A stretch of DNA of 64,000 nt from Antedon mediterranea (Eukaryota; Animalia; Echinodermata): contig NC_092671.1 of assembly GCF_964355755.1 (NCBI RefSeq), forward strand, positions 15,314,001 to 15,378,000, in the 5' to 3' direction. The notes under the pieces are model-generated. The model did no database searches. It saw only the letters and a program-made list of their open reading frames with translations, and was not told the DNA's origin. The position numbers and the translations under genes were made by a program. Positions 22,973 to 49,071 of the stretch are shown one piece after another. How positions within the stretch are numbered: position 1 is the first letter of the stretch; each line of letters begins with the position of its first letter.

Positions 22973-23598
22973 CTTGGAAGTCCTCTCAGTCTCAATACTC
23001 AACCTATGAAAATGAAAGAAAATAATAAAGTAAGCAAGTTTGTAATTCTAGTACTCCATTTCAAATACAGCCCCTGTCCCCAAATTTGCTGGTCTCCCTA
23101 TATAGGTTTATCGCAAATACCTTGATTTCACGAGAAACGTCATTGCACAATGCATGATGATCACTCACACAATTTGCGATAAACCTTATTGTCTACTAAC
23201 TACTACTAGCTAGGTAGGGCCTGCCTACACTACACTATACCTCCTAGGTTAGTACTAGGCCTAGTAGTTCTACAGTACTACTACTAGGCCCTCTAGTACT
23301 AGCTAGAGTGAGAGTAGGCCTTGGCCTAAACTAAAGCCTAAGCCTACTGTACTAACTACTATGCCTCGCCTAGGCTAGGTATGGCCAGCTATATAGCCTA
23401 CTTTACTGTACTTACTAGGCTAGGCCTAGGCCTACTAACTAAAAGGCCTAGCCTAGGCCTAGGCCTAGCTAGCTAGCTAGGCTAGGCCTAGGCCTAACTA
23501 GGCCTAGCCTAGGCCTAGTACTAGTTTGAAACTATTTCAAATACTAATACTGTCTGTGCTCAGCTAACATATTAGGATGGTGATTATATTATGCTCAC

Positions 23599-23682
23599 CT
23601 GTGTTTATTTCCCTTACAATTATGTACAAATCTATAGTTTTGGGGCTCATTTTGTCACCTTCTTCTCTCTGTTTCGTGCATC
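23599..23682 (-). other. Probable first (5' UTR) exon of FASTKD1-A, abutting the transposon left end
   Basis: Strong donor ACAG|GTGAGC at 23599/23598; matching acceptor TAG|G at 23004/23003 just upstream of the ATG at 22972. The 5' boundary is unknown. Confidence 0.6.
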
Positions 23683-23820
23683 CGGTCAGTCTAATTACCG
23701 AAAACAACCGAAAACAACCGAAAACAACCGAAAACAACCATAAACAACTGAAAACAACCATAAACAACCGAAAACAAACCGAAAACAAAATAACAATATC
23801 TAAATACCGAAAACAAATTT
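23683..23820 (+). repeat. Left TIR built of 10-bp AACCGAAAAC units
   Basis: Direct reading; inverted counterpart at 41538-41695. Confidence 0.95.
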
Positions 23821-24519
23821 GATGCAGCTACTATATTGACCTCGCACGCCAAACAAATTTCTACAGTATATTTTTTAAATGTCGCCCTCTATTGATAGGT
23901 GTTTCTAAAGCCAACAAGACCGCGCGCGCAAAGCCAAGGAGATAGAGACCATACGAAATGGAAGTGTGCACAAAATTTAACTCAATATCGTACAAACTCA
24001 ATGATAACACCGTGCATTTACTTACAGAATCTACAATATGTTAGATATTTAATATATATGTTACATGAATCTTACGGAGACAAGGAATTGTCTGTAGTCG
24101 TAAGACCCTTTGAAAAATAAAACATTATCATAGAAAAAAACATGAAATAAGGTTTTAAAGATACAAGTTGGAAAGTTAAAGTATTCCTACATATAATATA
24201 AAAGAAACTACATAATAGTAGCCTAACACTAACACGCACCACGCATAATATATAAGCATTTTAATATATAAGCATTTTTAAATACTGTAATTCGATATAA
24301 TCACTTCTAAAATATTTTTTAGTATTTTATAACAATTTTAACAACTAGGGATGGTTCTCGAATACATAGTATAATTTCAGCGATTTCAAATGTACTTACC
24401 GCATGACAATAATACACCACTTCTACGACGTTTATTTGTGTATATTGTGTTTATATGTAAAACAGTTTGTGAAAAACACCTCTATTCGGTGCAAATCGTA
24501 AATTAGCAGGTCTGAAAAT

Positions 24520-24702
24520 AATACTAAAAAGTGGTCAAAAATTGGGACCGTAGTCCGGATTGCCTCCAAATGTAATGGAGTGGTCCTTGGCCACATATTT
24601 CTTGCAATAACTTTTTTGAGTAATTCTGCTAACAAACAGACAGACAATCAAATAAACAGACACACGCGATCGATTAGAGATACCTCCTTGGCGGAGGTAA
24701 AT
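24520..24702. mobile_element. Helitron2/Helentron-associated non-autonomous element end
   Basis: (ACAG/ACAA)n microsatellite followed by the terminal hairpin ACCTCCTTGGCGGAGGT; family assignment is from memory. Confidence 0.45.
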
Positions 24703-25207
24703 AATAAATAACTTTTAAACCAATCAATTAATTGTGATAGAAGTATTGTGGTATTTGACTGACTTTGACAAATCAAGAAAGACGCCAATAAAAAAATCCC
24801 TTTTATGTAATGCTGAAGTAATTTTATTTCTATCTACCCAATTAATAAAGAAAAGCCAGTAATGCCAAATTCATTCTGCATACGACTGATCAGGATGTCG
24901 TGATCTATCGTATCAAAAGGATAAAAAAAAAACTGCCAAAACTAGCATAATATATCACCCTTTATCATGTTTCATCAACATAATATATCACTTTTAACGC
25001 GATAGAGCAGTTTCCGTACTATGAGATTTATTATATTATTTATACCGACTGATATGTTTCATAAAGTAGACAGGAAATGGTTAGATACTGAATAATCTTA
25101 CCTAACGTATGAAGGTTAGAAACTGGGCGAAAATCTGAGTTTAATGTTGATTTGGTCGGGAACCTAAACCAATAATTTCGCAAATCAACATTAGTAGACA
25201 TTCGTAG

Positions 25208-25580
25208 GGAGTGAGTGGCCGAGCGGTTACGACAGTGGAACAGTAATTACGGTCTTACTGAAAAACAACTTTTAGTTGAGTTAAGTATCCGTGATTAAAT
25301 AAAGCTTATTATTATTATTATTATTATAGCCATAACATCGGCAGGGGTTCGAGGCTCACTCACTCCGTGGTTCTGGTGGTTAGAACGAGTCTTCTCGGAT
25401 AAGGACTATAAACCGTAGGTCCAGTGTACACATCTCGCTCGTGTGCACTTTAAAGAACCTAGTACGAGACGAGTAGGGGGTTACCCCGGTGTATTAGTAC
25501 ATTACAGCCACTGATCACCAACTGGGTCCTCTGGGAGACCAGTCTTTGACTGAAGAGGTTACCCAGTATAAATATAAATT
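25208..25580 (+). mobile_element. Full-length tRNA-derived Deu/Nin-domain SINE, interrupted by a LINE-like 3' tail (~25250-25326)
   Basis: A box TGGCCGAGCGG, B box GGTTCGAGGC, GGAGTGAG/CTCACTCC stem, Deu-like core and AT-rich tail. The insert ends in AATAAA plus (ATT)n. Confidence 0.8.
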
Positions 25581-25967
25581 CAATCGATTCTGTGTTTTAA
25601 AACTTTTATTTTTATTTAAAATGTATTAGGATAAAAATGGGCAAAACGGATATATTGCTACATTTAAAAATGGAGGTCAAATACACAGTACAAATATTTT
25701 GTATATAGCCCGATTTAAACAAATGACAGGAGAAAAACATAATATCTATTTGGGTATTTATTTCTAACTATACGTTGATTTGTTTACAAACTTTTACGAT
25801 TGCATGTTCATTAAATTCGTCATAACCATGCCAGGTTACTTTCCAGAGGTGAATGACGATATAATATTTTTACATTAAATGCATTGGCGATATTGTTGTT
25901 ACCTTTATTTTATGTACATCAAGGATTATGTGTTGCGCTGTATTATACATTTTTTTTTACTTTGATG

Positions 25968-25969
<2 letters not shown>

Positions 25970-26035
<66 letters not shown>
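25970..26035. repeat. (TA)n microsatellite
   Basis: Direct reading. Confidence 0.97.
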
Positions 26036-26036
<1 letters not shown>

Positions 26037-26119
26037 TGAGGACTAGTTGTGTTCCAACCGTACCACGCCGAGAATGTTAAATTGTCGTTATCCAATCGAG
26101 TTAAAGAACAATACCATGA

Positions 26120-26300
26120 AATGGTCTAATGGTTAGGGCAACTGCATATCAAGCAGACGGTCCGAGTTCGAGTCTCGGTTGGGTCGACTTTTTCTCATTC
26201 TCACAGATTTCCTCATCTTTATCATTTCAAAAATTAATTAAATAATTTTCAGTGTATCACCGGGCGGTTTGGAATTTATTTCTATGCCTGTTGTGTTTTT
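26120..26300 (+). mobile_element. tRNA-headed repeat (second SINE-like family); decayed copies at ~59915-60030 and ~60170-60245
   Basis: TGGTCTAATGGTTAGG..CTGCATATC..GTTCGAGTC followed by the shared body TTTTTCTCATTCTCA. Confidence 0.65.
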
Positions 26301-26589
26301 ATATTTATACAATTGTATTGCGAAGCACTGTGTAAATTATATATAAATAAATACTGTCAAATTACAGTGCTCATCGGAACATGATCTCATAAACGCGTCA
26401 TTGGCGAAAGTTCCGTATTTTTTAGTTGTATGAAAAAATGTCTCTGGCGGGATTCGAACCTGTATATACGTTTCATACAAAAATTGTAATTAATCACGGC
26501 AAACAATTCTACGTAGTTCCTCGGAAATCTGTCTTAAGGCCATAACTGACAGGCCTATGCAACTCATCGAATTAATTTACTAACTTATT

Positions 26590-26830
26590 TTACAGAATTG
26601 ATGCCGTCAAGAACTTGGCTGGGATGATGCAATACCTCGCACCATCCAATCCGAATATTGGTTAGATGAACTTAGAAGGCATGAAATATGTTACAAACTA
26701 CAACACAAAAAGTATGCGAGAGCGAATTACACCCTTTTTTAGATGCTATAATTAAGGGCCAGCGTTTCTGTAGTTGATGACACTAACTATCGATGAGGCA
26801 GCACCCATAGATAGTAATGAAAATAAGTCA
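26590..26830 (+). mobile_element. Possible BEL/Pao LTR-retrotransposon pol remnant
   Basis: Decayed translation ILQN*CRQELGWDDAIP resembles the Pao motif LQxLC..LGWDxxIP. Confidence 0.4.
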
Positions 26831-26949
26831 GTCTGAGATTTTCAACATGGGAGAACCTCTGGAAAACTATAGCTTGGGTACCAGGTCCTGAAATACAAGG
26901 CTCGACTGAGACAAATATTAAAACTACCAAGGAAGAAGAATGGATCCAT

Positions 26950-27070
26950 CAATATTCTATCTACCCAATTTAAAGAAAAGCCAGTAATGCCAAATTCCTT
27001 CTGCATACGACTGATCAGGATGTCGTGATCTATCGTATCAAAAGGATAAATAACCTGCAAAAACTAGCGT
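26950..27070 (-). mobile_element. CR1/L2-type LINE reverse transcriptase fragment; second copy at ~24828-24948
   Basis: FDTIDHDILISRMQKEFGITG..LNW matches the AFDTxDH RT motif. Confidence 0.7.
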
Positions 27071-28111
27071 TAACAAAATTATTGAACCAGTATGAATATG
27101 ATGTTTCAAAAGAGCACGTCATGAAGACCACAACATTTGAGAAATGTCTATTCCCACAATCAAATGCAATCACACACGTATAAAGCATGCTGTGTATTTC
27201 AGTTTCTTATAGATACGGTATCAGTAACTTGAACTAGTATATTATGGAGATACTCTGTGGAGATCGATAGTTCTATCAACTATGGTTGTTCATTTATTTG
27301 GTGCTCTTTAAGTATAGAATAGATAAAGATAAGCTAAAGCGTATCAAGCTCCAAATGGCGCGTTATACCTTAAAAAAAGCACCTCTGGTTGGTCTCCAAT
27401 TAACTGAGATCCATAACGCTCTTTGTATGAAATACTAAAGATGGAAGTGTAATTGTGAATCCAAATATATTTTCTCCTCTCTCCTTTTAAATGTCTAAAA
27501 TTTTAAGAAACTTAACTCTATAATGATAGATGAATGGAGAATTGAATTACAAAACAAATCGTTTGTATTATTAATAAGCTGTGTTTTCTGTTGATTTTAT
27601 TTAATACAATTTCACTATATTTCTTTATTCATTTTTGTACAGTAATGATCTACCCTATGTCCCTATGTATCGATTAAAATTGGTTGGGGTGTTGCGGAGG
27701 GTAGAGGATATTTTAGGGGTTGTTAGTTGTTTTTTGCCTTTATAATTTTCTGTATGTATATTGTTATATTTTGTATTGTTATTGTGAAGGATGCACGTGA
27801 ATTTATCGGCTACTATTCACTGTTTAAAAACACAGACGATTTATTGTTGACACTTGAGAATTTGTATAAGTTATTCATAAATCTAATTTTTTTACGAAAA
27901 AAGAACCTAATTTCACAACTAATTTTAGTGAATTTTCATATATTTATATTTAATCTCTATCGAACGGTGGGGCAGGGAATAGGCCTAATGGAGGAGGTAG
28001 GAGGGTGGGGATGAGCTATATTATAATGATGTAGGCATATGTATAATACCATTAAAATATACAATAGACACATTATAATGTCAACAACCTTATAATAAAA
28101 CAAATACTAAT

Positions 28112-29145
28112 GGAGAAAAACTCGAAAACAGAGACCCCCACTAAAACGTCTCATTATATTGGGGGTCTCTTTTTTTGAGATTTCCCGAGACCCCCTAATA
28201 TAATCCCTGTTTATTGAGAGTGTTGCAAATACCCACCAACGAGCTTGGTCATAAATTATTAAAACCCAACTTTTATCGCAAAAACCGTGAATTTATGTTT
28301 ATTTATTTATCAATTTATTTTTATTTTTTTAATTCATTTCTTTTTAAAGGTTCGCCCAACACAATATATTTGTCTTCATCCTCCAGTCTGCCTCAAAGTC
28401 TGACCTCATATCATTTTGTTATTGCATTGTACGTTATTATCTTTTATGCTTGTTAATAAAGGTTACGAAACTAGTGTCAGTTTTTGAAATAATCTCCCGC
28501 TTTTTAGCTTCTAACATGCATTTATACATCTTACTTAACTTCTAGGACGTCGACCTTGTATTCCAAAATGACAGTCTCTTCACACGCGTTCAAGAATTCA
28601 TCAATCTTCTTATCGTTGCGGCATGTTCTTTGATATCGGCATATCAGTTACCGTTTATTACTGATACGTCATTCTGTGATTTTGAGACGTTTTAGTGGGG
28701 ACCCCCTATATAACGTAATATTGACCTAATATTGAGACGTTTTAGTGGGGGTCTCTGTTTTCGAGTTTTTCTCGAAAACAGAGACCCCTATATAACGTAA
28801 TATTGACTTAATATTGAAACGTTTTAGTGGAGGTCTCTGTTTTCTAGAAAAACTCGAAAACTGAGACCCCCTATATAACGTAATATTGACTTAATATTAA
28901 GAAGTTTTAATGGGGGTATCTGTTTTCGAGTTTTTCTGGAAAACAGAGACCCCCTATGTAACGTAATATTGACTTAATATTGAGACGTTTTAATGGGGGT
29001 ATCTGTTTTCGAGTTTTTCTGGAAAACAGAGACCCCCTATATAACGTATTATTTAGACGTTTTAGTGGGGGTCTCTGTTTTCCAGATTTTCTCGAAAACA
29101 GAGACCCTGGGTCTCGGGTCTCTGGTCTCTGTTTTTGAGACACCC
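28112..29145. repeat. Foldback-like element: ~82-83-bp tandem units, each with an 18-bp-stem hairpin (28683-29145), and a truncated inverted arm (28112-28200)
   Basis: GGGGTCTCTGTTTTCGAG-TTTTT-CTCGAAAACAGAGACCCC occurs 5 times with variants; the array ends in the TIR-like GAGACACCC. Confidence 0.8.
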
Positions 29146-30587
29146 GTTTCGACCTATCTCTTAGTCTCTGGTCTCTGTGTTCGAAGAACCTTAGTAATTT
29201 TATCAAGATCATACAAAGGAGTTCCTTACATGTTTATTCTTGACGGTAACCTATTTTGCAATATGTCAGTGGAATAACTGGCATTTTATCGGAGTCGGAC
29301 GGTTTTGTCAAAATAGTGTTTGATATGGCGATAGCACCGGTTCCGTGTGCGGTTATTATCAAAGCAGCCTGTTGGTTTCCGATTTCTTAAAGATGGTCCC
29401 AAATATGAGAGCAGCTTTGGCAAAATGTGCATTGCGATTGGTCTAGAACTTTGACGGTGTTAGGCTTCAGAAAATAAGCCAATAAAAAAGACCTTCATGC
29501 AACTATGTAAAAAGCGTGGTTCTGCTGAAGTTTCTTTCCACTATTTAAAGCGATAAAAAAACACATCATACCTTTATTCTTGAATTCTCACTGGAGAAAA
29601 TCCATCTAAATCTTTATTTTTGTACAGTTCAGTTCAGTTGTACAACAGTTCAGTCTATTTTTACTTAACCGTTCGGTTCTGACGAGCACACAGTGGTAAG
29701 TCATTCATAATTATTTACAGTTCATTTTTTAATAGTTAATCATTATTCAGTGTATAAAGAATGCTTTAATTTAAATATCTACAACGGTATTCAAGTTATT
29801 TATTTGTGCGAATCGCAATTTTTCGCGTATAATTTTTACCCAAAAATCATCAAACTAATCATTTTGACTAATAATGATATAAAGAATTGAAAAACAATAA
29901 AGCCTAAGTTAAGCAATTTGATTTGTGTACTTGTTTTTTTTCTTTTTCTCTTTTGTGGCGCAAACACCACTTTTATTCACATTCATATTATCTCATATTA
30001 CATAAAATCGTATTATTTAACTTGTAAATGTCGTTACAGTTCATAAGTAACATTTTTACATATATGAATTCTGTATTACTCCTTTTTTCATTAATTTTCT
30101 TATATTTTGTTATACACTTGACAGGATCATCATTATCATCTATCCCGTTTTAAAATAGTTCACACATTTTCATTTGTTTGTTTTCATTTTACAACCCGGA
30201 TTATACAATATATTTATATACATGATAAAAATAAACAATAATAGCTCAGTACCACCAGTAACCCGTATCACTGTAATTCTTTTTCTGTTAATCGTATCAA
30301 ATTAGAAATTATATTATCATAATCTTATTTCTTAAAGCTACCCATTTTTCTATACTTTTTTCTTTATTGTTATATGTTTCACATTCAATGTTATATAACA
30401 TATTGCTTTTAAATGAATTCCATAAAGATTTACCGACTGGCTTATTTAGTGCAGATAACATTTTTATTCTATAAATAGTAAATGCTGCAAAAGTGTAAAT
30501 ATAATCTGATAAATATAATGTGTACTTGCTAATGATAGGACCTTACAATTGCTTTCAAACCAATTGTTCTTATTTTACTTTCAGAAT

Positions 30588-33500
30588 ATGTACAGACAAA
30601 AAAGGCAGCACAAAAAAACTAGACCTTGTTTAACTTGTTTTGATTGTGACAAGAAAAAAACGGGGAAATACTTTTGTGGTGTTTGTAAGTTTGCGTGCAA
30701 CAATGACAGTATATTTTGTGATTATTGCTTACGCTGGTTCCACATATTGTGCGAAAACTTAACTAAAGCAAACTTGCATAGCTTAGGTAACTCTCCTTTG
30801 CATTTCACTTGTTCCGAATGCTGTAGCCCTAATGGCAGTTTTGATTTTTTGGCCTCATTAGAGCGTATTGATTCAGCTACCAAAAACAATTACAATATAC
30901 TTGACATAGCGCAAAGTGAACGTTTATTTCTACGTAATCATCGCTTTAGTAAACCCCCGTTTACGATATCTCAACAGTATGTCATCGATGCTGTTTCTAC
31001 AAGTATAATGAACAAATGTGGAGGTGGGCGTTTAATCCCTGTATCTGTCGCTGGTGACGGTAGCTGCTTGTTTAATGCCGTAGCTGTTGCTTTGACTGGC
31101 AATGAAAACATTGCTACTGAACTTCGCGTAAGAACATTTGTTGATATGGTAGAAAAAGAAACATTCTACAAGGAACTGCACAAACATTCAAAAATTGCTT
31201 TAACCAGTCCTGATTACAATCTCGCTTGTTCAGATTGTAGTCGTGAAAGCGGTTATTCTTCAGCTTGGCAGATACAGGCGTTGTCTAGTGTTATAGGGCA
31301 AGAAATTATTTCTGTGTATCCTCCTTATAATGGCGTTACTGACAATGCACATCGCATATTGAATAGAAGTTTTTATCCTTGCGAAGAAACAGCTGACAGA
31401 CATCCGATTTTTATTATGTGGACTAGTACACTATTACCTTCTTCAAAGGGTACGTGGATTCCTAACCACTTTGTCCCGTTATTGGACAGTTCTTTAATAG
31501 ATGAGAGAGTGTGTTTACCCGAAATATTGTCATCTTGCTTGTCATCTACTTCGTATGACGACATTGGTCACAAGAAAGTAATCAAAAGGAAAGGTAAATT
31601 AGGCCTACTCTACTAATTTAGACAAATGGTTTCTTATTTATTTGTACAAATTTAAAAAAAATAAAATTTTAGGATAAGAATACACAAAACTTATCCGTAC
31701 GTAGTGTACGCAATAGATTGGTTCATTGTTATTTTTTATTGTAACGAAGTTATCTCAGAGGTGTGTTTATATTATTGACCGAGATAAATCTAAATTTTTA
31801 TAGTTCAAAAAAAGAAAAGGCGACCGAAAATGAAAGAACGAATCGCAACTATAGTACCCATATCATCTGATTCCGTTGACTCAACACCACAGGTTGATCC
31901 TACAGACTTTCCCTCCACTTCTGTTGATACACAACCTTTCCATAAACGGGATATGATTTCCCTATCTCCACTGTCCACGCCCAACAGCGACAACGTACCC
32001 ATGTCGATGACAACGCCCGACTTGAAAACCACAACAGATACGCAACATGCAAGAGGTAGTGTTTTGTTCTGTTATTTTTTTTTTAACAAAGACATGTTTT
32101 ATTTAATAAGTGTAGGCGTCTATAGAAAACTGAGATATCTGATTGTATCTACATCAAATACAATTGTGTGTTTGTACTTATCGATATGAATCTACATTTT
32201 TATAGTGCGAAAAAAGAAAACAAGGCGACCGAAGAAGAAGCAACGAATCGCAACCACAGTAACCATATCATCTGATTCCGTTGACTCAACACTTGATCCT
32301 ACAGACTTTCCCTCCACTTCTGTTGATAGACAACCTTTCCATAAACGTGATATGATTTCCATATCTCCACTCTCCACATCAAACAGCGACAACGGCAAAA
32401 AGACAGACACAAATGCCACGATGGCTAATTTAGAGGGCTATCCAGCTACCTCTTTTTTTAACCAATCTTCCAATATAGATTCTGATCTGATTTCATTATC
32501 ACACCCATTTTCTGACCCCAACAAGAACAGCAATGATCATGCAGACACCAATGAAAAGTTACTACCTAATCATAATGATGTATTGCATATGCCTATAACA
32601 GGAAAGCCTTCCGATAGTGTGATTTTCCAATCCCCAATTTGTAACCCCCACAGCGAAATCATAAAGGAAAAAAGCACCATAAAAACTATGCAACATGAAG
32701 GTAAGTGTTTTGTTCGTTTTGATCTTCGCATTACAAGATCTGTGTTAGAAAACACAAATTTTAGATATATCTAAGTTTTCTAGATCTAAAAAACTCAGAT
32801 ATTTGAGTTTCCTAGAATTATGAAATTTAAATAACAAGATCCGAGTTTCAATCTTCAAATATAAAAATCAAATCACATAATACAGTAAATCGTGTCATTA
32901 TTAATAAGAGGGTAGTGTTTAAAATACACCTATCATTGTAAGTACTGTTATTTGCAATATAGTACTGCGGTCAACCTGCATAAAATGCGCCTAAAATGTA
33001 TAACATGATATAGAACACTGTTCAATGTCTGATTGTTTATCATGTATGTTATTTACCTTTAAAAGGCAAAAGAAAAGCTCCCAGCAATAGCCTGAAAATA
33101 TAGGGGAATACATTTGTAGTTATGTATTGCATTATGGTTTGACAAATATTTTATATATTTTCAAAAAGGAAAACAGCAGAGGCGACACACTGTATTTTTC
33201 AAGATTGAAGATGTCGGTGATAATTCACCAATTATATTTTCTTCGTCCGAGTCTGAAGTTGATCCTACAGACTTTCCCTCCAATTCTGTTGATAGACAAC
33301 CTTTCCATAAACGGGATATGATTTCCATATCTCCACTGTCCACACCCAACAGCGACAACGTACCCATGTCGATGACAACGCCCGACTTGAAAACCACAAA
33401 AGATACGCAACATGCAGGAGGTAGTGTTTTGTTCTGTTTTTTTTTTTGTAAAAAATAAATGTTTTATTCAATAAGTGTAGGTGTCTATAGGAAACTGAGA

Positions 33501-36500
33501 TATCTGATTGTATCTAGATCAAATAACATTGTGTGTTTGTACTTATCGATATGAATCTACATTTTTATAGTACGAAAAAAGAAAACAAGGCGACCGAAGA
33601 AGAAGCAACGAATCGCAACCATAGCAACCATATCGTCTGATTCCGTTGACTCAACACCACAGGTTGATCCTACAGACTTTCCCTCCACTTCTGTTGATAC
33701 ACAACCTTTCCATAAACGGGATATGTTTTCCATATCTCCAATCTCCACACCAAACAGCGACAACGTACCCTTGTCGATGACAACGCCCGACTTGAAAACT
33801 ACAACAGCTACGCAACATGCAGGAGGTAGTGTTTTGTTCTGTTTTTTTTTTTTTTAACAAAGACATGTTTTATTTAATAAGTGTAGGTGTCTATAGAAAA
33901 CTGAGATATCTGATTGTATCTACATCAAATACAATTGTGTGTTTGTACTTATCGATATGAATCTACATTTTTATAGTGCGGAAAAAGAAAACAAGGCGAC
34001 CGAAGAAGAAGCAACGAATCGCAACCACAGTAACCATATCTTCTGATTCCGTTGACTCAACACTTGATCCTTCAGACTTTCTCTCCACTTCTGTTGATAG
34101 ACAACCTTTCCATAAATGTGATGTGATTTCCATATCTCCACTCTCCACATCAAACAGCGACAACGGCAAAAAGACAGACACTAATGCCACGATGGCTAAT
34201 TTTGAGGGCATTCCAGCTACCTCTTTTTTTAACCAATCTTCCAATATAGATTTTGATCATCAATTTTCTGACCCCAACAACGACAGCAGTGATCATGCAG
34301 ACACCAATGAAAAGTTACTACCTAATCGTAATGATGTATTGCATATGCCTATAACAGGAAAGCCTTCTGATAGTGTGATTTTCCAATCCCCAATTTGTAA
34401 CCCCCACAGCGAAATCATAAAGGAAAGAAGCACGTCGATGACAACGCCCGACTTGAAAACCACAAAAACTATGCAACATGAAGGTAAGTGTTTTGTTCGT
34501 TTTGATCTTCGCATTACAAGAATAGATCTGTGTTAGAAAACACAAATTTTAGATATATCTAAGTTTTCTAGATCTAAAAAACTCAGATATTTGAGTTTCC
34601 TATATTTATGAAATTTAAATAACAAGATCCGAGTTTCAAGCTTCAAATATAAAAATCAAATCACATAATACAGTAAGTCGTGTCATTGTTAATAAGAGGG
34701 TAGTGTTTAAAATACACCTATCATTGTAAGTACTCATTGTTATTTGCCAAAAATAGTACTGCGGTCAACCTGCATAAAATGCGGCTAAAATGTATATCAT
34801 GATATAGAACACGATTCAATGTCTGATTGTTTATCATGTATGTTATTTACCTTTAAAAAGCAAAGGAAAAGCTCCCAGCAATAGCCTGAAAATATAGGGG
34901 AATACATGTATAGTTATGCATTGCATTATGGTTTGACAAATATTTTATATATTTTCAAAAAGGAAAACACCAGAGGCGACACACTGTATTTTTCAAGATT
35001 GAAGATGTCGGCGATAATTCACCATTTATATTTTCTTCGTCCGAGTCTGAAGTTGATCCTACAGACTTTCCCTCCACTTCTGTTGATACACAACCTTTCC
35101 ATAAACGGGATATGATTTCCATATCTCCACTGTTCACACCAAATAGCGACAACGTACCCATGTCGATGACAACGCCCGACTTAAAAACCACGAAAGTAAC
35201 GAATCATGCAGGAGGTAGTGTTTTGATCTGTTGTTTTTTTTTTTAACAAAGTAATGTTTTATTCAATAAGTGTAGGTGTCTATAGGAAACTGAGATATCT
35301 GAATGTATCTAGATCATATAACATTGTGTGTTTTTACTTATCGATATGAATCTACATTTTATAGTGCGGAAAAAGAAAACAAGGCGACCGAAGAAGAAGC
35401 AACGAATCGCAACCATATCATCTGATTCCGTTGACTCAACACCACAGGTTGATCCTACAGACGTTCCCTCCACTTCTGTTGATAGACAACCTTTCCATAA
35501 ACGTGATATGATTTCCATATCTCCACGCTCCACACCAAACAGCGACAACAGCAAAAAGACAGACACAAATGCCACGATGGCTAATTTTAAGGGCATTCCA
35601 GCTACCTCTTTTTTTAGCCAATCTTCCGATATAGATTTTGATTTGATTTCATTATCACATCAATTTTCTGACTCCAACAACGACAGCAGTGATCATACAG
35701 ACACCAATGAAAAGTTACTACCTAATCGTAATGATGTATTGCATACGCCTATAACAGGAAGGCCTTCCGGCGATAGTGTGATTTTCCAATCCCCAATTTG
35801 TAACCCCCACAGCGAAATCATAAAGGAAAAAAGCACGTCGATGACAACGCCCGACTCGAAAACCACAAAAACTATGCAACATGAAAGTAAGTGTTTTGTT
35901 CGTTTTGATCTTCGCATTACAAGATCTGTGTTAGAAAACACAAGTTTTAAATATATCTAAGTTTCCTAGATCTAAAAAACTCAGATATTTGAGTTTCTTA
36001 AATTTATGATATTTCAATAACAAGATTCGAGTTTCATTATTCAAATAGAAAACTCAAATCACCAAATACAGTAAATCGTGTCATTATTAATAAGAGGGTA
36101 GTGTTTAAAATACACCTATCATTGTAAGTACTGTTATTTGCAATAGTACTGCGGTCAACCTGCATAAAATGCGGATAAAATGTATCATGATATAGAACAC
36201 GATTCAATGTCTGATTGTTTATCATGTACTGTATGTTATTTACCGTTAAAAAGCAAAAGAAAAGCTCCCAGCAATAGCATGAAAATATAGGGGAATACAT
36301 TTGTAAGTTATGTATTGCTTTATGGTTTGACAAATATTTATATATTTTTAAAAAGGAAAAAAACAGAGGGGACACACTGCATTTGTCAAGATTGAAGACG
36401 TCGGCGATAATTCACCAATTATATTTTCTTCGTCCGAGTCTGAAGTTGCTCTAAGTAATTCCGAAACACGATACAGTCACATAAACAATTCATTTAGTTC

Positions 36501-38817
36501 TGATCTGGAAAAGCAAGGTTCGTTATTTAATTTACACAACCTAATTGAAACACTATATTAATAAAATCTACATTATCTTTGTGTGACACAATATTCGAAA
36601 ACAAAATTCATTATCATTTCCAATATGCAATTAAAATTAAAATAATTCTGTTTATTTTTGTGGGAAATTGTGACGGCTGATATCTTTTATTTTCCAAATA
36701 AAACTATCTTTAGATGTATCGACTACGTTTTAGCGTGTTCTTAAGGTACAATTACATGTTACTAATATACTAATATTCTATTGTGAAAATATTACATATA
36801 AAATAGAAAATGCATGCATCATACATTTGCTCAAAAGTAACTATTGAAATAAAGTTTATAAACAGTGCCCGCAAAAAAGGAAACATGCCTATTACTGTTA
36901 TTAAATATTTTGAAATTTTCAATATGCTTCGTTTTAGGTGACCGAATGTCGTGCAAAAGGTTCACAAAGCGGTTGTTAAACAAAAAATTTGTTCAGGTGT
37001 CTGAACTATACCAAATCCTCATGAAAACATCAGAAAATGCAACATTCCCAGACATTCCGCAGGGTGTTAAAGAAAATATGTTATTTGTTGTCAACAATGA
37101 AGGCAATGTACAACAACGTTTTGGAGGTGGTCGTAGCTTCTTTCCTGATGATTGTGGTGTATGGGACTCGTCAAGTAGTAGTACTCCGAAGACACAGTTC
37201 ACAAGAGTAGCTGGAAGGCTTATCACCATTGTCTTTAAGTGTGATAGATTTTGCATTAAAAAAAACGGTACTTGGGTCCCGCTCGTACCACAACCGACTA
37301 ATATTATAACTTTGCATAGGTGTTATTGTAAATTAAAACGAGACAAAGGGTACAAAAAACGAGTGTCGTGGATAGAAAACGAAAACGAAAAAATGAACAA
37401 CTTCAATAGGCCTAAAGCAGTAGTTGAATACATTGGCAATTTTCCTTTTACCATTTCGTCACATGGTAATGACAGACATACACACACAGAATACGTACGT
37501 ACTCATCCGAAAGTTCTACGTGATGCTGAATGTAGACTTGTCCATTCCAAACCCAGGGATACTTACGCAGATATGGTTTTTTCTAACCCCGAAAGCGCAC
37601 CCAGAGATATGAAACAACTGAGAAATTTGAAATATAACCGATCAAAAAAACTCACCACAGGTAGTAGGTCTAATGTTGCCGATGATATACAAAATTTAAT
37701 AACCGAATTAACAAAACATGAATTTGTAAAAAAAGTCTTTGCTGTACCTAATCAGCCTCCTTGTGTAATTCTGTACACAAACAATCAAATTAATGACTTA
37801 CGAAGGTTTTGTTGTGGCAATATTTCTCAAAGTATACTAGGGATCGATAGGACTTTTAACTTGGGGGCTTGCTATTTAACGGTTACTGTTTTTAAAAACA
37901 CTCTATTGCTTAAAAAAGAAGCAAATGATCATCCCATTTTTGTCGGCCCGATGCTATTACACTGGGATGGTCGGTACAGCACGTATCTTGATTTCTTTAC
38001 ACATTTGCGTTGTCAGCTTGACAGTGACATAAACAATTCCGAAGTTGGTATGAGTTGTAATATGGTCATAGGTTCCGACGAAGAAAAGGCAATTTTGAAA
38101 GCTTTAAACTTTTCTTTCCCCAATTCGCGACACATATTGTGCACAAGGCATATCAAGCAAAATGCATCTCGTTACTTGCTTGAAAAGCAAGGAGCAAATA
38201 ATAAGTACCGACAAATAATACTAAACAAAATCTTTTCGCCGTCCGGATTACTTGGGAGTACAAACATTTCACAATTTGACAAACGTTCACTACAATTGGA
38301 AATAGATTTCCAAAAACAAGTTCCACTATTTGGAAATTATTTTAGAGATAAACTGTGCCCAACCTTAAAAGAAAAGGTTTTCAGACCCAATATTACCGAC
38401 CGAGTGATTCCGGACCGTTGGACAAACAACAACTGCGAAAGCATAAATCACATTCTAAAACTATCCATTAACTGGAAACCACAAAGGCTTCCAGATTTAG
38501 TACAAATTCTACACAAAATTGCGAAATTACAATATGCAGACGCCCGGCGTGCAATTCACGGACAAGGCAATTTTTACGTTATCCCTAGATTAAAGAAATA
38601 TACAGTGCCAAATTCGGTTTGGATAGGGAAATCTGAAGATGAAAAAAACAAATATGTTTTACGATTTTTGAAAATATCACTGAACAAAACAGTTGCAAAA
38701 ACAACAACATCTAAAGACGGGAAATTAATTATTCCTGCAACACCACAATGTGCTAAAAAACCAGGACAAAAAAAAAGAACCAGAGTTGCAAAAACCACAT
38801 CATTCAGTAAGAAATAA
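30588..38817 (+). CDS. PHD finger - OTU-like protease - repeated linker - MULE transposase fusion (~1860 aa); exons 30588-31593, 31804-32055, 32206-32700, 33169-33420, 33571-33825, 33977-34483, 34963-35214, 35365-35886, 36356-36517, 36938-38817
   Basis: Nine GT-AG introns, all phase 1; joined length 5583 nt with no stop. PHD C4HC3: CGVC..CDYC..WFHILC..CSEC. OTU-like motifs GDGSCLFNA and NHFVP. MULE triad GIDRTFN / GSDEEKA..CTRH / TNNNCESIN. Probable non-coding first exon ends at 29695 (G|GTAAGT). Confidence 0.8.
31780..36450 (+). repeat. Tandem exon-plus-intron duplications (offsets ~1.77 kb and ~1.39 kb) forming the linker
   Basis: Repeated RKKKTRRPKKKQR, DPTDFPSTSVD.QPFHKRDMIS and near-identical intron sequences. 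Confidence 0.95.
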
Positions 38818-41537
38818 GAGTTGTATCAAGACTTGAAAGAATTAATGGTGAAGATTTTACTTAGGCTATTTTATATTCACACTTATTTGAAACTCATAAT
38901 CTACAATAATTACACTCTTTTTATAATAATATTGTTTTGTATATGTTTTTAACTTAATATCATTTATATTAAATCAGTATATACTTGTATAATACAAAGA
39001 TTTGAATGTGAAAAAAATAGTACCGTATTTATTCGAATAAATTGAATAAATGCAACCCAACCCCTCTAATTAGGGCGACAATTACACAAACTAATTTTTA
39101 CTCTATTTAACACGTCGTGATGTAATTGTATTGTAGTTTTCATATTGAAGAGGTTCCGAGATATCTATTGAACCATTTTACACCAAAAAAAAAAATAAAA
39201 AGTGCATTAAGCTTATTCAATCGGTTTCCCTAAATTTTGTCGAAGAACCCCATTATCCACGCCATCAATGTGTCAAAAGCTAGTAATTTGATTAAATGTT
39301 CTCAGTTGTGTTTTATGTCGCACATTTAATAATTCCACATCTCGTACGTTTTACTATTACTTTAACAATGAAACGTTTATTATTAAAGGTAGGCCTACCT
39401 TAGTTTCTCGTGTTATTAATTCTGTTTGCACTTATTAAATCTATCTTTTTATATTAATTATTGTTAAAGTTAAGTCGCATTTTAAATATACTTATGTATT
39501 TACTCCAGTATTTGTCACAGTGTTAAATTTTTATTATTTAATAACGCATTTACTAGATAGCATTTACAGATTATTATTGCAATTTTAAATATGTTTATAT
39601 TGGTTTGTACATGGAGGTCCTCCATGGTTTGTATAACACTACTTCCTAAAAACATACGTTCTCTGTCTAACAATTTTTAAAAGCAATGCAATCGTATCCG
39701 ATTTAGATTGACAACTTAGCAGTTGTAAATATTCAGTTTTGCAATTAGCATTAAGTTATAAAATTTCTTTTTTCTTTTAAACTTTTGTTCGATAATTTGT
39801 ATTTTTTCTCCACATAGAATATAAATCACTTTGCCTTCAACAAACATGTGTATTAAGTTTGTTCTTTTTCAAAAAAAAATTCACAAATTGATATTTTATT
39901 GAGTTTCAACCTATACCTAAAAAAACATTAGATTTCAGTATGTTTTGTGTGTTTTTTTTTACAAATTAAATTTAGGTAGATGTTGATAATACATTTGATA
40001 TCTTGAATCAAGTTTGTATACCTCAAAAACATTATATTTAATGCCTTTCCTCTGGTCAAGAGACGAGATAAGCCCTTGACCAATGTTAGGACCAATCAAG
40101 GTGCTTTAAACAGTCCTGGCTTTGTTTGTATCAAACCTGTTAGTGGCGGTAATTATCGCTGTTGGTTTTTATTTTAATAAAATAAAAAATAAAAAAATAA
40201 AAAAGGAATTATGTTACAGATTTTCAGTTGTGTTCTCATGTATTATTTAAAACATGAAAAATGTTATTTATTTACTACACTATGTTATTTAAATTTAGTT
40301 TGTTGTAGTTAAACAAACATGGCTAGATGTTGATAATACATCTGATATCTTGAATCGAGTTTGTACCTCGAAAACAAAATGAAATTTAGTACTAAAAAGA
40401 TGTTACAGACTTGAGTTGTGTTCTCATGTTCTCTCAATATGATTAGGCCTAAGGTTAATAAAGATTTACAAGTTAATGAAACATGTTTGTGTTTTCACTT
40501 CCTGTCATCATTTTTGTCAGACTATTATATATATATATATATTTCAACGGAGAAAAACATTCATTAACTCATTAATCAGGGGAAACAACATTACGTTTAA
40601 TTGTTAAACAACTTAATCAAAATTAAGCTGTCGCTGCAAAAGACTTAAAATGAATCCTCTCTAAAACGCACACTGCTGGAATTAAGAATTTAACTTATTT
40701 AATAAATGTTTATATATTTTTCTTTTTTATTTTAACCTTGATTTTAATTTGTATTACAATACTTGTCTAGTCTAGTGGTGAATTGGGCATTACACCAGAA
40801 GGCTAGCTATACTCTTTCTTTCAAATTGATTTTTTAATGAAACAAGTACTTTGAACAAATTCATGCGTGAGCACATAGGCATCATTTTCTCTCTATTTGC
40901 ATTCAAATAAATTACAGTTATTCGTTTAGTGAACAAATAAATTCAAGAATCAACATTAAAATAACGTCAAATGATATGAGTTATGAGGTTCCATTTTTCA
41001 TGAATTTTACGCGCGAGAGTACCCATTTCCGGCCATCTAGCTAGGGGTGTCATGGGAGTAAATTAGCTTCGTCACAGGCCCCACCATGGTTCCAATACTT
41101 CTTATCATTTTATCAGAACTAAACTTACCCACCCACCCACAATGATCATCTCAGGCATTACAAATTTCTTAGTAGGCCTTCTAGCTGTTATATGGCCACC
41201 GAATAACAAAGTTTAATAAATAATAGACTATTTAATTAATTTTCAGTGGATTATTTGTTGGGTACTTGGGGGTATAGGCCTACTATAAAACAAAAAAACA
41301 CCTCTGACGTATTTAGCTTTGCTTTTTGCTTCTCAGTTTGAAATGAACATGTCATAGGGGAAAACTTTACCTTTGCTCCCCCCCCCCCCACATCTCCCTA
41401 TTTCAAAATCCTGGATCCGCCCCTGATTTTGGTGCCGAATACTCGTCAGATCCTGACAACCAAACCAAGGCTCACGTGTAATAACGCAGTGCTATCTACT
41501 TCAATATATCATTAATATAGAGGGCGACATAACAAAA

Positions 41538-41695
41538 AATTTGTTTTCGGTAATTAGATTTGTTTTAGTTTGTTTTCGGTTTGTTTTCGGTTGTTTAGGG
41601 TTGTTTCCGGTTGTTTTCGGTTGTTTTCGGTTATTTTCGGTTGTTTTCGGTTGTTTTCGGTTGTTTTCGGTTGTTTTCGGTAATTAGACTGACCC
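41538..41695 (-). repeat. Right TIR of the 18-kb element
   Basis: (TTGTTTTCGG)n followed by TAATTAGACTGACCC. Confidence 0.95.
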
Positions 41696-42916
41696 CGTGC
41701 ATCGCGTGCGATTAAAATAAAAAGAACTTTACAAATCGAAACGGTATTGCCAGACAACCATCTAAAAAAAGAAATACAATTTGAAAGCAAATATGATTAA
41801 TTTATTTATTACGATTATTATTTAATGATATAGTCATAAGAAATAAACAGATTATACCTAGTATAACCATGTTTATATAGGCTATACTATATTCTTAATT
41901 ATATTGTTGTTAATAAATAGAATTATAAAATATCCTGGCAAAATGTTCATGGAGGCTGACATATTGGATACCCCATGCCGCTTGCCGACCACGTTCCTTT
42001 TGAAAAGGAAGGAAGGCCAGGTAATAGTGTAATGGGCCTAGGCCTAAATTTGTTGACAAATGATAATAGGCTAAGTTAGTACGGATTTTAGTACATTACT
42101 TTAGTAGGGAATGTAGCCTAGCTAGGCCTAGGTCTAGCTAGGCTAGGCGTTTAATTATCTGTATGATATGAATATGTTTTTAATTTTATGTGTCATGTCA
42201 GACTTTGTTTTTTTTAGTCCTCTAGTAGTAGTTAGTACTACTACTAGGCCTACTACTACTAGGTAACATATAGAAGCTAGCTAAGCTAGACTATGGAATC
42301 CGATGCCTCTACTGGATCCTCTACTACCGTAGCTACTAGTACTAGGCCTAGGCCTATACTTTAGCCCCACTGCACTGGGCAAACAAGACATTTGACAATT
42401 GCATCAAAATATCTAGGCCAATGTTATTAGCCTAGGCCTAGGCCTATGCGCAATTTGTTTGAAATTGCACAAGGATATCCTTGGGCAATTTTTTGAACAC
42501 AAAGTAACACAAAGTCATCAGCTAAACTTGATCTGGTTGCACTAGGCAACTTTAGCTCATCATATAACACCCATCCATGCGGCGGTGAGAGAATCGCATC
42601 TTCCTAATTGTGCCGTCTAATTTATCTTCTCTTCTCTATTATAAAAACATAGGCCTAAATCTTTTTATTTATTTATGAAATTGTATTCTGTTAATTTATT
42701 TCAATAATATTATTATATTACATTTATTTATCAATTTAGGATATAAAGGTTTGCTGGGCGTACCTATCCACAGAGTTTAATTAATTTAATTGTTATATTA
42801 GATAAATTTTGTAGCACAATCCTCTATTAGAAATAATGGTTTATTATTATTTTACAGGAAAAAGGTGATCATGGTCTTACTGTAATTACAGAGTACACTG
42901 GTAAAGCATTAAAAAA

Positions 42917-45900
42917 ATGTTGTTTTGTAACAGGGCACGACCGTTTTGCCCTCCGTGGGGCTTTTTTTCACCAGAATCAACATTGTCACTTTTGAACAAG
43001 AAGAAGAATCTACTGTCTCAGAAATTAGCAAGTCAACTGCAGACTCGAAAGTATTACCAACAAAGATTGAAATCAGCTTTGAATACGTCATCAAGGAGGT
43101 CACTCAACTTTGCAAACAATCAATCAAGACATTTTATTCCTTGGAGAATCTTCTCTTTTTCAGATGCTGTGTCTGTAAAAGATGAAATTATTGCCGGGAA
43201 CACATTTGAAGACATTTTAAATGTTGTAGAGAAAAGAAGATCTTTGATGAACCCAATGCTAATCTCCGAAGCATTTATAAAACTCAGCAAGATAGTAGAA
43301 AACAATGACAACATTAAAGTTGATAATTTGTTTGAAGAAAATAAGAGTTTTGCAGATCTTTGCATTTTAGCAGAAAATCTTGTTTCAGAAACCAGCAATG
43401 ATGAGCTAATAGTTATCTTACACAGTCTGTATATAATATGTAGAGATGAGTGTTTGAGTCTATCAAATGTTGTTCAATCCGAGTGTCATAACCGTTTACA
43501 TTTGTTCAACCATAGTCAGTTGTCTTATGTAGCTAATTGGTTTCATAAGAGAAAACAGATTAAGAATCACACTTTGGGGCAGATTGCTGCAATTTACCAG
43601 AAAGAATTGTACCAGATAAATGATTTGGAAACCTTTGCACGATTGATGGTAGCTGTTATGCCAATATGTAGCCAAGAATTTGGTGAAGAGTCTTTGAAAC
43701 AAGCATTATGCCTCATAGAAACGTCAGATCCTGAGTTGGTTTCTGCTCAAACTGTTAAGCTCATTCTGCAAACACTAGTAGGCATGAAGAATTGCCATAC
43801 AGCGATTTTAAAGCATTGTGTTAACATACTTTTGCCACGGTTGATGAATTTGTCATTAAGTGATCTTGGCTCTATTCACCAGAATTTGTATTTCCTTGGA
43901 TTCAGTCACAAACAAATTAATTCATCTATACGTGCACGGTTTTTGAAAGAGCTTCCAGAAATTAAAGAAATCAAGGATATTATATGCGCAATGCAAGTTT
44001 TAGGACCAAGCCTATCTTCATTTGTTAGACATCGATTGGAACAAAAGCTTCTTGCAAATTCCCAAGATATATCTATAGAGTTCATACAAGGGGTTTGTAA
44101 TGGACTGCGTTTAATGAAGTACAATTTGGAATCGCCCATTATGAGAAAAATTACCAATATGATTATAGAATTCTCATCTGACCTCACAATATATGACCTA
44201 GTACGTGTATGCGAGTGCCTTAAGAATGTTGACATCTCACCCAAAGACAAAATATTTGACATTTTAACAAAAAGACTTTTGGAAATCTTAGAAACTGCCA
44301 TTACACCTGGACGAGTAAAAAATGTAGCATATTGTTTATCCCTCTTGCCGAGTGAGTCTCTAGATATAATGGTTATAGAACGACTAGAAAATATGTGGTC
44401 TTCTTTTCATCCTGGAGATATCCATCAAATTAAAAAAATATTAAATATTTTTTTGGAAAGAACATTTTTAAGTGGTTATGTAAAGAGTAGGTTACAGGCA
44501 TTTGTTTCAAAGGTTCACAGTTACTCTGAAGTGAACATCTGTAATTTTAAAAGCATAGTTTATCTGAACCAGCACCTTGACTATTTAATGAGATCAGGAG
44601 CTGAAAAAGACATTCTAGTGTACGCCATGGATCAGTACAGTAACTGTTTATATGGCTTGAGTCCAAAGATGGCAGTTCAGAGTATCAACAGGGTTGGAAA
44701 ATCGGGATATCTGCAGAAGGATGTCTTGGACAGAGCTGCTGAGGTCATTTCAGATAATCTGGAATGTATTTCGTTGAATCATATTTTAAACCTGTTAATA
44801 CCTTACTGTGTGTTTGACTACTTTCCTGCTTCTGTGCCCAAATTCGTTGACACTTGTGCTGAAATGATTCTACCATTTTTGGAAGTGCTATCATTAAATC
44901 ATCTTCTTCATCTTGCATACTTGCTGAGTTTAAATGGCAGTTTTCCAGAGCCTCTCATTAGAACAATTTTCAGTGTGGAATTTCTACTGAAGTTTGATAG
45001 ACAACAAATCAATTGTAGTAAGTCTTTATATTTAGTGTTAAAAAAAATCATAATGTTCCTAATTATGCTGGTGACTGGTTAACTTTTCCACACAAGGCCT
45101 TCCAACAAAACAGCATCCAACTAAAACAAGCCTTATAGGAAAGAACTGTTTTATGTTTTCCCATCCACACCAGGTGTCATTCTGCTTCAAAAATTAGACA
45201 TCCTGTCTAGTATAACTTGATGAAATGTTTGCCTATGAATTAACAGTGTAATAAATACTGAAAGTGTTTACTGTTATTTTATTTATGTATACTTTAGTTT
45301 CACCTAAGACGAAAGAGATCAACCTACATAGACTGTTTTTGGTGAATAGGTCAGTAGTACTGCAGTGCCCACAATACAACATTCCTTGGTTTCATCATGA
45401 TTATTCTGAAACATTTAGTCATCAAGGTAAGTATAGAAATTTATAAACCACCCACAAACTTTTAAACCACCCACTCCCTTCAAGTCATGTTCACACCGAG
45501 CCAAGTTTGTAAACCACTAACACCCTTTAAACCATGTTCACACCTAGCCAAGTTTGTAAACCACCCACTTTTATTTCTTCATCAATAAAATGTTCGTTTA
45601 CAATGCATTGTACTTGATTAATGTAATATTACAATACAATACAACTGACATTAAATAACTTTCAATACATCTTATATCTCCCCCTTTAAGCCATGTTCAC
45701 ATCTAGCCAAGAGTGTAAACCACCCACACCTAGCCCACCAATCTGAATTCATACCAAGCCAAACTAACTTGATGAAATGTTTCTATTTAAGAACACTTTA
45801 TAACCATTTTACATGAATTTTATCACAAGATCCTGCTTTATAGGTGCTTTTTTTATCTTAATATTATTCTCTGTAATTTTTTTTCAGTTTAGTTAATTAA

Positions 45901-48547: not shown

Positions 48548-49071
48548 GAGATCACTCTGGATTGAACAATAGCCTATTTGACTTATACTCTTTCTACACT
48601 CAAATATGGTAGTGATATGCTTAAATATGACAGTGATATGACATCATCATGTTCATTATGGGCAAACCACATTTGTTGTCACATAGAGTTTGATAGTGTA
48701 GACAGAGCTTGAGAGGCCAATAGAAGCATGGTTTTTAGAAATTGATGTAAAAATATATTATAAGTAGAATGTGTTGGTACAATAATATAATTTATAAAGG
48801 ATGTTCTTATTTCAACACAATTTAAAATTATAACATCATATTGTATGCAATTTAAATAACTTCTAAATGCAATATTGAAATTTATTTTTAAAAAGGTATG
48901 GATTGAAACAATCCATTTTCTATTGTAAAATAAACAATCAAATAATTGGTAAATGTTTGAATTTACTTTATTATGTGATAGATGGATATGAGCTACAGTG
49001 ATGAACTTGTTATGCTAACCATCTTTGTGAACATCAGACTACGACGAATTTCGGTCATTACCTTTGACGTA

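Follow-up and report, generated by a model that had tools for sequence, protein, structure and literature searches.

Mutator-like elements (MULEs) described from arthropods span 1.4 to 10 kb, and the main text of the survey that compiles them mentions neither OTU nor PHD domains (PMC13359780). A broader catalogue includes, in its element descriptions, the OTU-bearing MuDR-6_HM, the PHD-bearing Rehavkus elements, and Rehavkus-3_TC at 18,501 bp (Dupeyron et al. 2019, PMC6446971). As described for Muta1, subterminal repeats serve as transposase binding sites and increase excision, hairpins are left on the flanks by cleavage, insertion gives target site duplications (TSDs) of 8 or 9 bp, and changes to the terminal motif lower activity (PMC5499845, PMC5225508). 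Ubiquitin-family proteases recur in unrelated transposons, and guesses at their role have been offered since 2006-2010 (PMC1702500, PMC2836005); no test of that role was found in the literature searched. Here, we analyze a 64,000-nucleotide stretch of the genome of the echinoderm Antedon mediterranea (contig NC_092671.1, positions 15,314,001 to 15,378,000; hereafter the window, with positions counted from its first letter). The window holds an 18,013-bp cut-and-paste MULE with an unbroken predicted gene joining a PHD finger, an OTU domain, a linker, and a DDE transposase, and we consider it probable that the element grew by in-frame exon duplication and by nested repeats, which probably moved with it. 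The main interest of this element lies in the putative role of its OTU and PHD domains.

The element occupies positions 23683 to 41695 between two identical copies of the 8-bp TSD CGTGCATC, at 23675-23682 on the left and 41696-41703 on the right. The chance of an exact 8-mer match at set positions was 2.6e-5 from flank composition and 5.4e-5 from random pairs of window positions. Every other placement of the ends that we tried (offsets of up to 3 bases, TSDs of 8-12 bp) required a mismatch in the TSD, and readings with a 9- or 10-bp TSD were dismissed because they needed more changes. The left terminal inverted repeat (TIR; 23683-23820, + strand, ~138 bp) consists of a terminal motif and 9.1 copies of a 10-bp unit, and the right TIR (41537-41695, - strand, ~159 bp) contains 12.1 copies of the unit and begins with GGG. 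The outermost base is C on the left versus G on the right, and the following 56 bases are identical. Internal to both TIRs is a 14-bp subterminal motif, at 23879-23892 (+) and in inverted orientation at 41517-41530 (-). Thus, the inverted ends built of 10-bp units 18,013 bp apart, the 8-bp TSD, and the outermost mismatch described in the initial annotation are all borne out. That annotation had also named termini closer to the gene as an observation that would speak against it; a comparison of the two spacers gave no inverted termini nearer to the gene, with a 15-bp word of A and T only as the next-best inverted match, and the TIR motif does not occur elsewhere in the window.

Within these ends, a ten-exon gene model on the + strand (30588-38817), built from splice-site motifs, contains nine introns that are all GT-AG and phase 1 and leaves 1,860 codons open and free of stops, which supports the intact fusion gene proposed earlier. 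Coding exon 1 (30585-31593, ATG at 30588) encodes the PHD finger and OTU domain as judged from Pfam, predicted folds, and conservation, and the last exon (36938-38817) encodes a beta-rich, putatively DNA-binding region followed by the MULE DDE transposase. A putative promoter and 5'-untranslated region (5'-UTR) exon at 29430-29696 (+) come from a motif scan: CCAAT boxes lie at 29437 and 29479, initiator-like words lie at 29629 and 29650, and a splice donor follows 29696. Since the reading frame is intact, the element may be autonomous, with the changed left terminal base speaking against this, and its gene is likely competent to make transposase.

The catalytic residues of the transposase are D1538 (nucleotide 37846), D1615 (38077), and E1735 (38437), with C1636xxH1639 located 21 residues past D1615 and W1729 preceding E1735. 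The D/D/E, C, H, and W positions were each kept in 63-65 of 69 homologues (63-64 for the DDE triad), all are present in the Antedon element, and among 51 strongly conserved columns the Antedon copy departs at only one (L to V). The predicted transposase fold (predicted local distance difference test score [pLDDT] of 88) best matched the ISCth4 transposase (Z score of 13.1, root-mean-square deviation [rmsd] of 4.8, 223 residues aligned), followed by Hermes and then by the P element and RAG-like enzymes. The beta-rich domain ahead of the core, the place of a WRKY-GCM1-type DNA-binding domain in MULEs, was modelled along with adjoining sequence and gave weak matches to SSR4 (Z score of 8.1), GCM (6.4), and NAC (6.1). 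No FLYWCH or SWIM finger, which is optional in the Phantom/Muta group (group 20), was matched by Pfam in the gene product. MULE transposases are characterized by a (C/D)xxH motif 15-45 residues past the second D and a W before the E, as set out in the classification given for Muta1 (PMC5499845). With the limits that we applied for membership (a TSD of 8-11 bp and TIRs of >100 bp), the DDE triad, the CxxH and W residues, the 8-bp TSD, and the modular TIRs, together with the ISCth4-like predicted fold, support the MULE identity suggested initially and place the element in this superfamily by its sequence characters. The Pfam MULE score counts against this placement, with 27.3 bits (E value of 5e-6) falling just short of the 27.6 cut-off; several homologues pass that cut-off.

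Between the OTU domain and the transposase, the gene encodes a linker from eight tandemly duplicated, symmetric phase-1 exons spanning 31804-36517 on the + strand (31804-32055, 32206-32700, 33169-33420, 33571-33825, 33977-34483, 34963-35214, 35365-35886, and 36356-36517). Each exon is a multiple of three bases long, and the encoded linker is a low-complexity sequence rich in Ser, Thr, Asp, and Pro with repeated basic motifs. The copies are 4-8% divergent, with ~19% for the partial last copy. The distance from the OTU domain to the transposase is 953 residues in Antedon versus 68-320 residues (median of 137) in the 34 of 55 homologues that were measurable. By this comparison, the Antedon linker appears three times longer than that of any of these 34 relatives, with the reservation that the relatives' lengths are those of gene predictions in which linkers were possibly under-called. 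This exon-duplicated linker is a distinctive trait of the Antedon element. Net indels were multiples of three in 6 of 6 cases among linker exon copies versus 0 of 10 among introns (Fisher p of ~1e-4), with events counted by hand, the partial exon 9 excluded, and a 10+5 gap from the aligner taken as a single 15-base gap. Because indels keep the frame in exons, these data argue that the gene was translated while it was growing. The ratio of nonsynonymous to synonymous differences (pN/pS) in the linker, ~0.65 when pooled and ranging from 0.38 to 2.0, tempers this argument and suggests selection on the frame rather than on the residues. Together, in-frame indels and drifting residues fit a translated, disordered tether.

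The linker exons may have been duplicated through unequal exchange or through slippage during gap repair, and the tandem duplication adds ~4.7 kb to the element, a part of its size that had been missed initially. The description of the element as unusually large stands relative to typical animal MULEs but not as a statement without precedent, given the 18,501 bp of Rehavkus-3_TC. The locus offers an example of a transposon gene growing by symmetric exon duplication with its frame kept.

Another portion of the length is repeat-bearing DNA without coding sequence, of which 5.3 kb lie upstream of the putative promoter and 2.5 kb lie beyond the first polyadenylation word. The ~6 kb of short and long interspersed element (SINE and LINE) and foldback debris reported initially was thus found as repeats, but the amount in the 5' spacer (23900-29200) is nearer 5.3 kb and the LINE label was not confirmed. 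This spacer contains a SINE-like repeat (~25200-25583), a (TA)33 tract (25970-26035), a tRNA-derived repeat (26050-26190), and a foldback-like repeat (28113-29107) composed of 5.1 copies of an 83-bp unit (28700-29107) and an inverted arm (28113-28157). The tRNA-like head at 26120-26180 scored 35.8 bits against a gathering score of 29, and ARAGORN found no tRNA gene. Second copies within the window were detected for the dispersed repeats at 25397-25583 (81% identity) and 26050-26153 (74% identity). A fragment of 114-119 bp, present at both 24828-24946 and 26955-27068 with 4 mismatches and 2 gaps, is putatively reverse transcriptase (RT)-like as judged from motifs in six-frame translations; Pfam, PDB, and protein searches gave no confirmation. 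The two copies enclose 2 kb of other repeats, an arrangement that may reflect a duplication or a switch of template within the element.

The 3' spacer (38968-41510), which opens with the first AATAAA at 38968, is AT-rich and has high-copy repeats near 40062-40728. No convincing Pfam match to a captured host gene, as in Pack-MULEs, was obtained among the 14 of 69 spacer frames scanned, and the identifiable interior pieces are repeats, with the coding portion being that of the element itself. Rfam miRNA matches were below the gathering score and were set aside as reflecting hairpins. A high-copy repeat at 24500-24700 ends in a tetranucleotide microsatellite and a GC-rich hairpin and presumably resembles Helitron-associated interspersed elements. 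We take frameshifted peptide fragments at 26600-26900 (+) to resemble a BEL/Pao retrotransposon polyprotein and a decayed fragment at 28330-28690 (-) to resemble the C-terminal end of L1/Tx1 ORF2. A contig from sequencing run X3 reached a depth of 715 within the latter interval.

Sequencing runs containing part of 36300-45100 numbered nine, of which four were from one sample that is possibly the source of the assembly, and contigs were compared for runs X1, X3, and X6, covering 25-33 in 100 of each run, with the small shares in runs X7-X9 of organism B left aside. At that coverage, most of the transposase exon (36060-38727) had no contig in any of the three runs, an absence to which we give no weight. 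In a second sample, X5, 0.68 of the words of 36300-45100 were present, and the flank makes up 39% of that interval, so that X5 contains roughly half of the words of the element or more. In X3, the left flank was assembled as two alleles with depths of 42 and ~60 (sum of 102), and interior contigs had depths of 114-140, rising to 200 at an overlap of internal repeats. A 517-bp debris contig without differences had a depth of 137.6, versus 135.7 and 139.4 for gene contigs. These depths are compatible with a single homozygous locus as well as with an additional copy that has the same debris, and they do not tell one homozygous locus from a low-copy family. Other contigs of the same sample carry three variants of the left end and a transposase 3' end that has diverged, indicating relatives of the element in this sample, and in X6, which carries another organism label, one contig matched the right TIR over 74 bases, with 7 differences. 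None of the 15 of 25 joints examined was an empty-site joint. Element exons had CpG ratios of 0.88 and 0.96 versus 0.44 and 0.42 for host exons, and this lack of CpG depletion suggests short residence.

Several of these observations weigh against an element that moved whole with its repeats. In X3, the interior is only 1.1-1.4 times as deep as the two flank alleles taken together, which would equally fit one homozygous locus; contig depth should not be read as copy number; and runs X1 and X3 represent one sample that is possibly the assembly source. Furthermore, the left terminal base is changed, and the age test gave a p value of 0.39 for 1 mismatch in ~65 TIR and TSD bases versus 4 in 114 in the debris duplication, a calculation that took 66 paired bases in place of the counted 65. 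The explanation that draws most on these points is that a MULE of ~10-12 kb inserted and stayed, with debris arriving later and never serving as cargo, so that the locus is a single immobile and possibly homozygous copy. The altered terminal base, an interior depth compatible with two haploid copies, the nonsignificant age test, and the composition of the debris as high-copy host repeats all favor later arrival. However, the debris is fragmentary and only 74-81% identical to its nearest window copies while the TSD and the outer part of the TIR have hardly changed, the 517-bp debris contig is variant-free at slightly above diploid depth, and no stop or frameshift occurs across 5.6 kb of coding sequence. 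We therefore regard later arrival as unlikely, if still a serious contender, and consider that the nested debris probably moves with the element as cargo, as had been suggested initially, a proposal that is plausible but unproven. Movement of the whole element, if shown, would extend the cargo range of animal MULEs.

The N-terminal exon encodes a PHD finger at residues 30-78 (PF00628). Upon alignment with Pygo1, the Tyr and Trp cage walls of the methyl-lysine pocket were found to be retained; in Pygo, the pocket is described as having Tyr and Trp walls and an Asp lip (PMC2726290). Two features detract from this assignment: the PF00628 score of 23.9 is just below the cut-off of 24, and the Asp lip residue is absent. 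With the Pygo walls kept but the lip not, binding of the PHD finger to methylated lysine 4 of histone H3 (H3K4) stands as a prediction. The OTU domain spans residues ~146-300 (PF02338; 24.3 bits versus a cut-off of 23.3) and contains the catalytic residues D157 (oxyanion Asp), C160, and H294. Of the homologues, 21 of 21 retain the Cys and 21 of 22 retain the His, a pattern that speaks for selection on catalysis. For the PHD-OTU fold prediction (pLDDT of 85), the best match was VCPIP1 (Z score of 14.8, rmsd of 3.1, 165 residues aligned), with OTUD3, Cezanne, TRABID, and A20 as further matches (Z scores of 13-15 including VCPIP1). Less favorable to activity is a Val two residues past the His, a position at which many OTUs have Asp or Asn. 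On the basis of these fold models, the OTU domain most likely acts as a deubiquitinase, and the 1,860-residue enzyme would likely also read chromatin and remove ubiquitin. A similar OTU domain was observed in the long proteins P0007, P0008, P0009, and P0010, which have no match to the Antedon transposase, suggesting that the module is common to another type of element. An Atlas search returned OTU clusters only, all under 0.9, and a possible link to Vertnin was set aside, as no supporting paper was found.

These features allow a model of how the element might function. By analogy with Muta1, the beta-rich domain would bind the 10-bp TIR units, the DDE core would cut at both ends so that the flanks end in hairpins, and strand transfer with an 8-bp stagger would have produced the TSD. 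Docking of the PHD finger on methylated H3K4 is predicted to bias insertion toward promoters, and the OTU domain is predicted to deubiquitinate chromatin, repair factors, or the transposase to which it is fused. Repeats would be tolerated in the non-coding spacers and in the 5'-UTR intron. Given that Muta1 is less active when its terminal motif is altered, the changed base at the left end likely puts this copy at a disadvantage and lowers its mobility, and the copy could still supply transposase in trans. A bolder and, in our view, rather unlikely formulation holds that PHD-OTU MULEs constitute a widespread invertebrate clade of single-chain reader-eraser-transposases, of which the 18-kb Antedon member transposes in its entirety, along with ~8 kb of foreign repeats and a tether of 950 residues that expanded one exon at a time. 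The PHD finger would then direct integration to promoters with methylated H3K4, much as RAG is guided by the finger of RAG2, and ubiquitin on target chromatin or repair factors would be removed by the OTU domain. If true, the element would be a natural large-cargo, promoter-seeking transposon.

A different role for the OTU domain, that of a self-processing protease cutting the disordered linker to free the transposase, is improbable. Such processing was suggested for OTU-fused MULEs of Medicago (PMC1702500), and a long flexible linker would permit it. However, the closest OTU folds are all those of deubiquitinases, and the linker varies freely in sequence and in length (68-320 residues in relatives), a variation noted with no search for a conserved cleavage site. 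Deubiquitination thus remains the preferred role of the OTU domain in the 18,013-bp MULE.

The fusion is not peculiar to Antedon. A protein library search yielded 2,044 proteins with an E value of ≤1e-10, and the PHD-OTU exon was matched by 41 of the 45 homologues with at least 200 residues N-terminal to the transposase, indicating that the fusion is the family norm. Several of these 41 are encoded by single open reading frames (ORFs). Relatives named for 8 of 20 clusters are from Batillaria, Pinctada, Haliotis, Lingula, Styela, Tubulanus, Oratosquilla, and Cherax, with long OTU-bearing N termini among those of Batillaria, Pinctada, Lingula, Styela, and Oratosquilla; hosts include molluscs, a brachiopod, a tunicate, and a crustacean, and Styela clava has three relatives of 987 residues within one 90% cluster. 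By these protein matches, the PHD-OTU MULE family is widespread in marine invertebrates. A clade of MULEs with an N-terminal PHD-OTU module was not found in the literature searched, outside the scope of which lie Repbase and FASTA supplements that may hold one. We also observed relatives of ~1,475 residues (P0003 and P0005, in clusters of 181 and 63 members) that have several tandem DNA-binding regions and an apparently decayed core and that are possibly a domesticated derivative.

For the Antedon gene itself, domestication by the host, with the TIRs as relics, is very unlikely. Many introns, conserved chromatin domains, and a kept frame would suit a host gene, but the perfect TSD, near-perfect TIRs, and lack of CpG depletion do not, and neither do the sister ends in the same sample and relatives at multiple loci, such as the three Styela clava proteins. 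Least credible of all is that two unrelated TIR remnants bracket the gene by chance, since the large distance and the variant TIR ends elsewhere are outweighed by matching 8-bp flanks (p of ~5e-5), the lack of closer termini, and a TIR motif found nowhere else in the window.

The 18,013-bp MULE lies between two FASTKD-like paralogues that are arranged head to head, share 26% identity, and each have an unusually long exon of ~2.1 kb. The likely start codon of the left exon (20879-23047, - strand; PF06743) is 703 bp away from the insertion on its left side, and that of the right, divergent paralogue (42905-45082, + strand) is 1,214 bp away on its right side, such that the starts would be ~1.9 kb apart without the insertion. 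Lying as it does between a pair of host genes at their 5' ends, the element may alter the expression of both. Insertion between two divergent starts matches a promoter-seeking element; one site is weak evidence because MULEs without a PHD finger favor genes too. Elsewhere in the window, we observed a G-protein alpha first exon (12959-13480, -), a C2H2 zinc-finger exon (57056-57523, +), and minisatellites at 46296-46879 (22 bp x 26.5) and 62780-63183 (49 bp x 8.2). A dispersed palindromic family resembling miniature inverted-repeat transposable elements has four copies (17346-17517, 48601-48656, 54370-54581, and 59458-59564), and a fragment at 55559-56149 (-) presumably resembles a LINE 3' end.

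Compared with described systems, the Antedon element shares with MuDR-6_HM of Hydra (MULE group 14) its status as an animal MULE with one ORF and an OTU domain; by description only, MuDR-6_HM differs in its length of 5,227 bp and in the absence of a TIR and of a PHD finger from its catalogue entry (PMC6446971). Rehavkus elements are likewise MULE-related, have a transposase with a PHD finger and TIRs of 26-412 bp, and include the 18,501-bp member, whereas their TSD is 9 bp (8 bp here, from one insertion) and no OTU domain is listed for them (PMC6446971). Rehavkus elements, as catalogued from insects and an annelid, also contain a minisatellite before the 3' TIR (PMC6446971). Nothing of this kind precedes the TIR in Antedon, where the stretch beyond the stop codon holds just a 15-bp x 2 repeat. 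Muta1 of Aedes aegypti (Phantom group), as described, resembles the Antedon element in its TSD of 8 or 9 bp, its GGGTC end, its TIR of ~145 bp composed of a terminal motif and subterminal repeats, and its DDE core with conserved W and H, but it is 3.2 kb long, encodes a 504-residue FLYWCH transposase with no PHD or OTU domain, and has a palindromic terminal motif and 12-bp repeats with spacers (PMC5499845, PMC5225508). The Antedon TIRs show the subterminal tandem repeats of type 2 foldback TIRs, in 9.1 and 12.1 copies, but the ten outermost bases at the right end form no palindrome, in contrast to the 10-bp terminal motif of that type. The element would suit a yeast assay of the Muta1 type, since its ends are defined, its TSD is perfect, and its PHD and OTU residues are conserved.

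The same domain types have been reported in OTU-fused MULEs of Medicago and PHD-fused MULEs of Ciona and C. elegans, where, in the architectures given, the domains are C-terminal and in separate elements rather than N-terminal and in one chain as in Antedon (Babu et al. 2006, PMC1702500). Ginger1, Helitrons, and Mutator elements carry OTU or Ulp1 proteases; those of Ginger1 and Helitrons, which belong to transposase superfamilies other than that of the Antedon element, were proposed to act in transposition or repair (Bao et al. 2010, PMC2836005). Size, OTU domain, and PHD finger each have precedent among MULEs.

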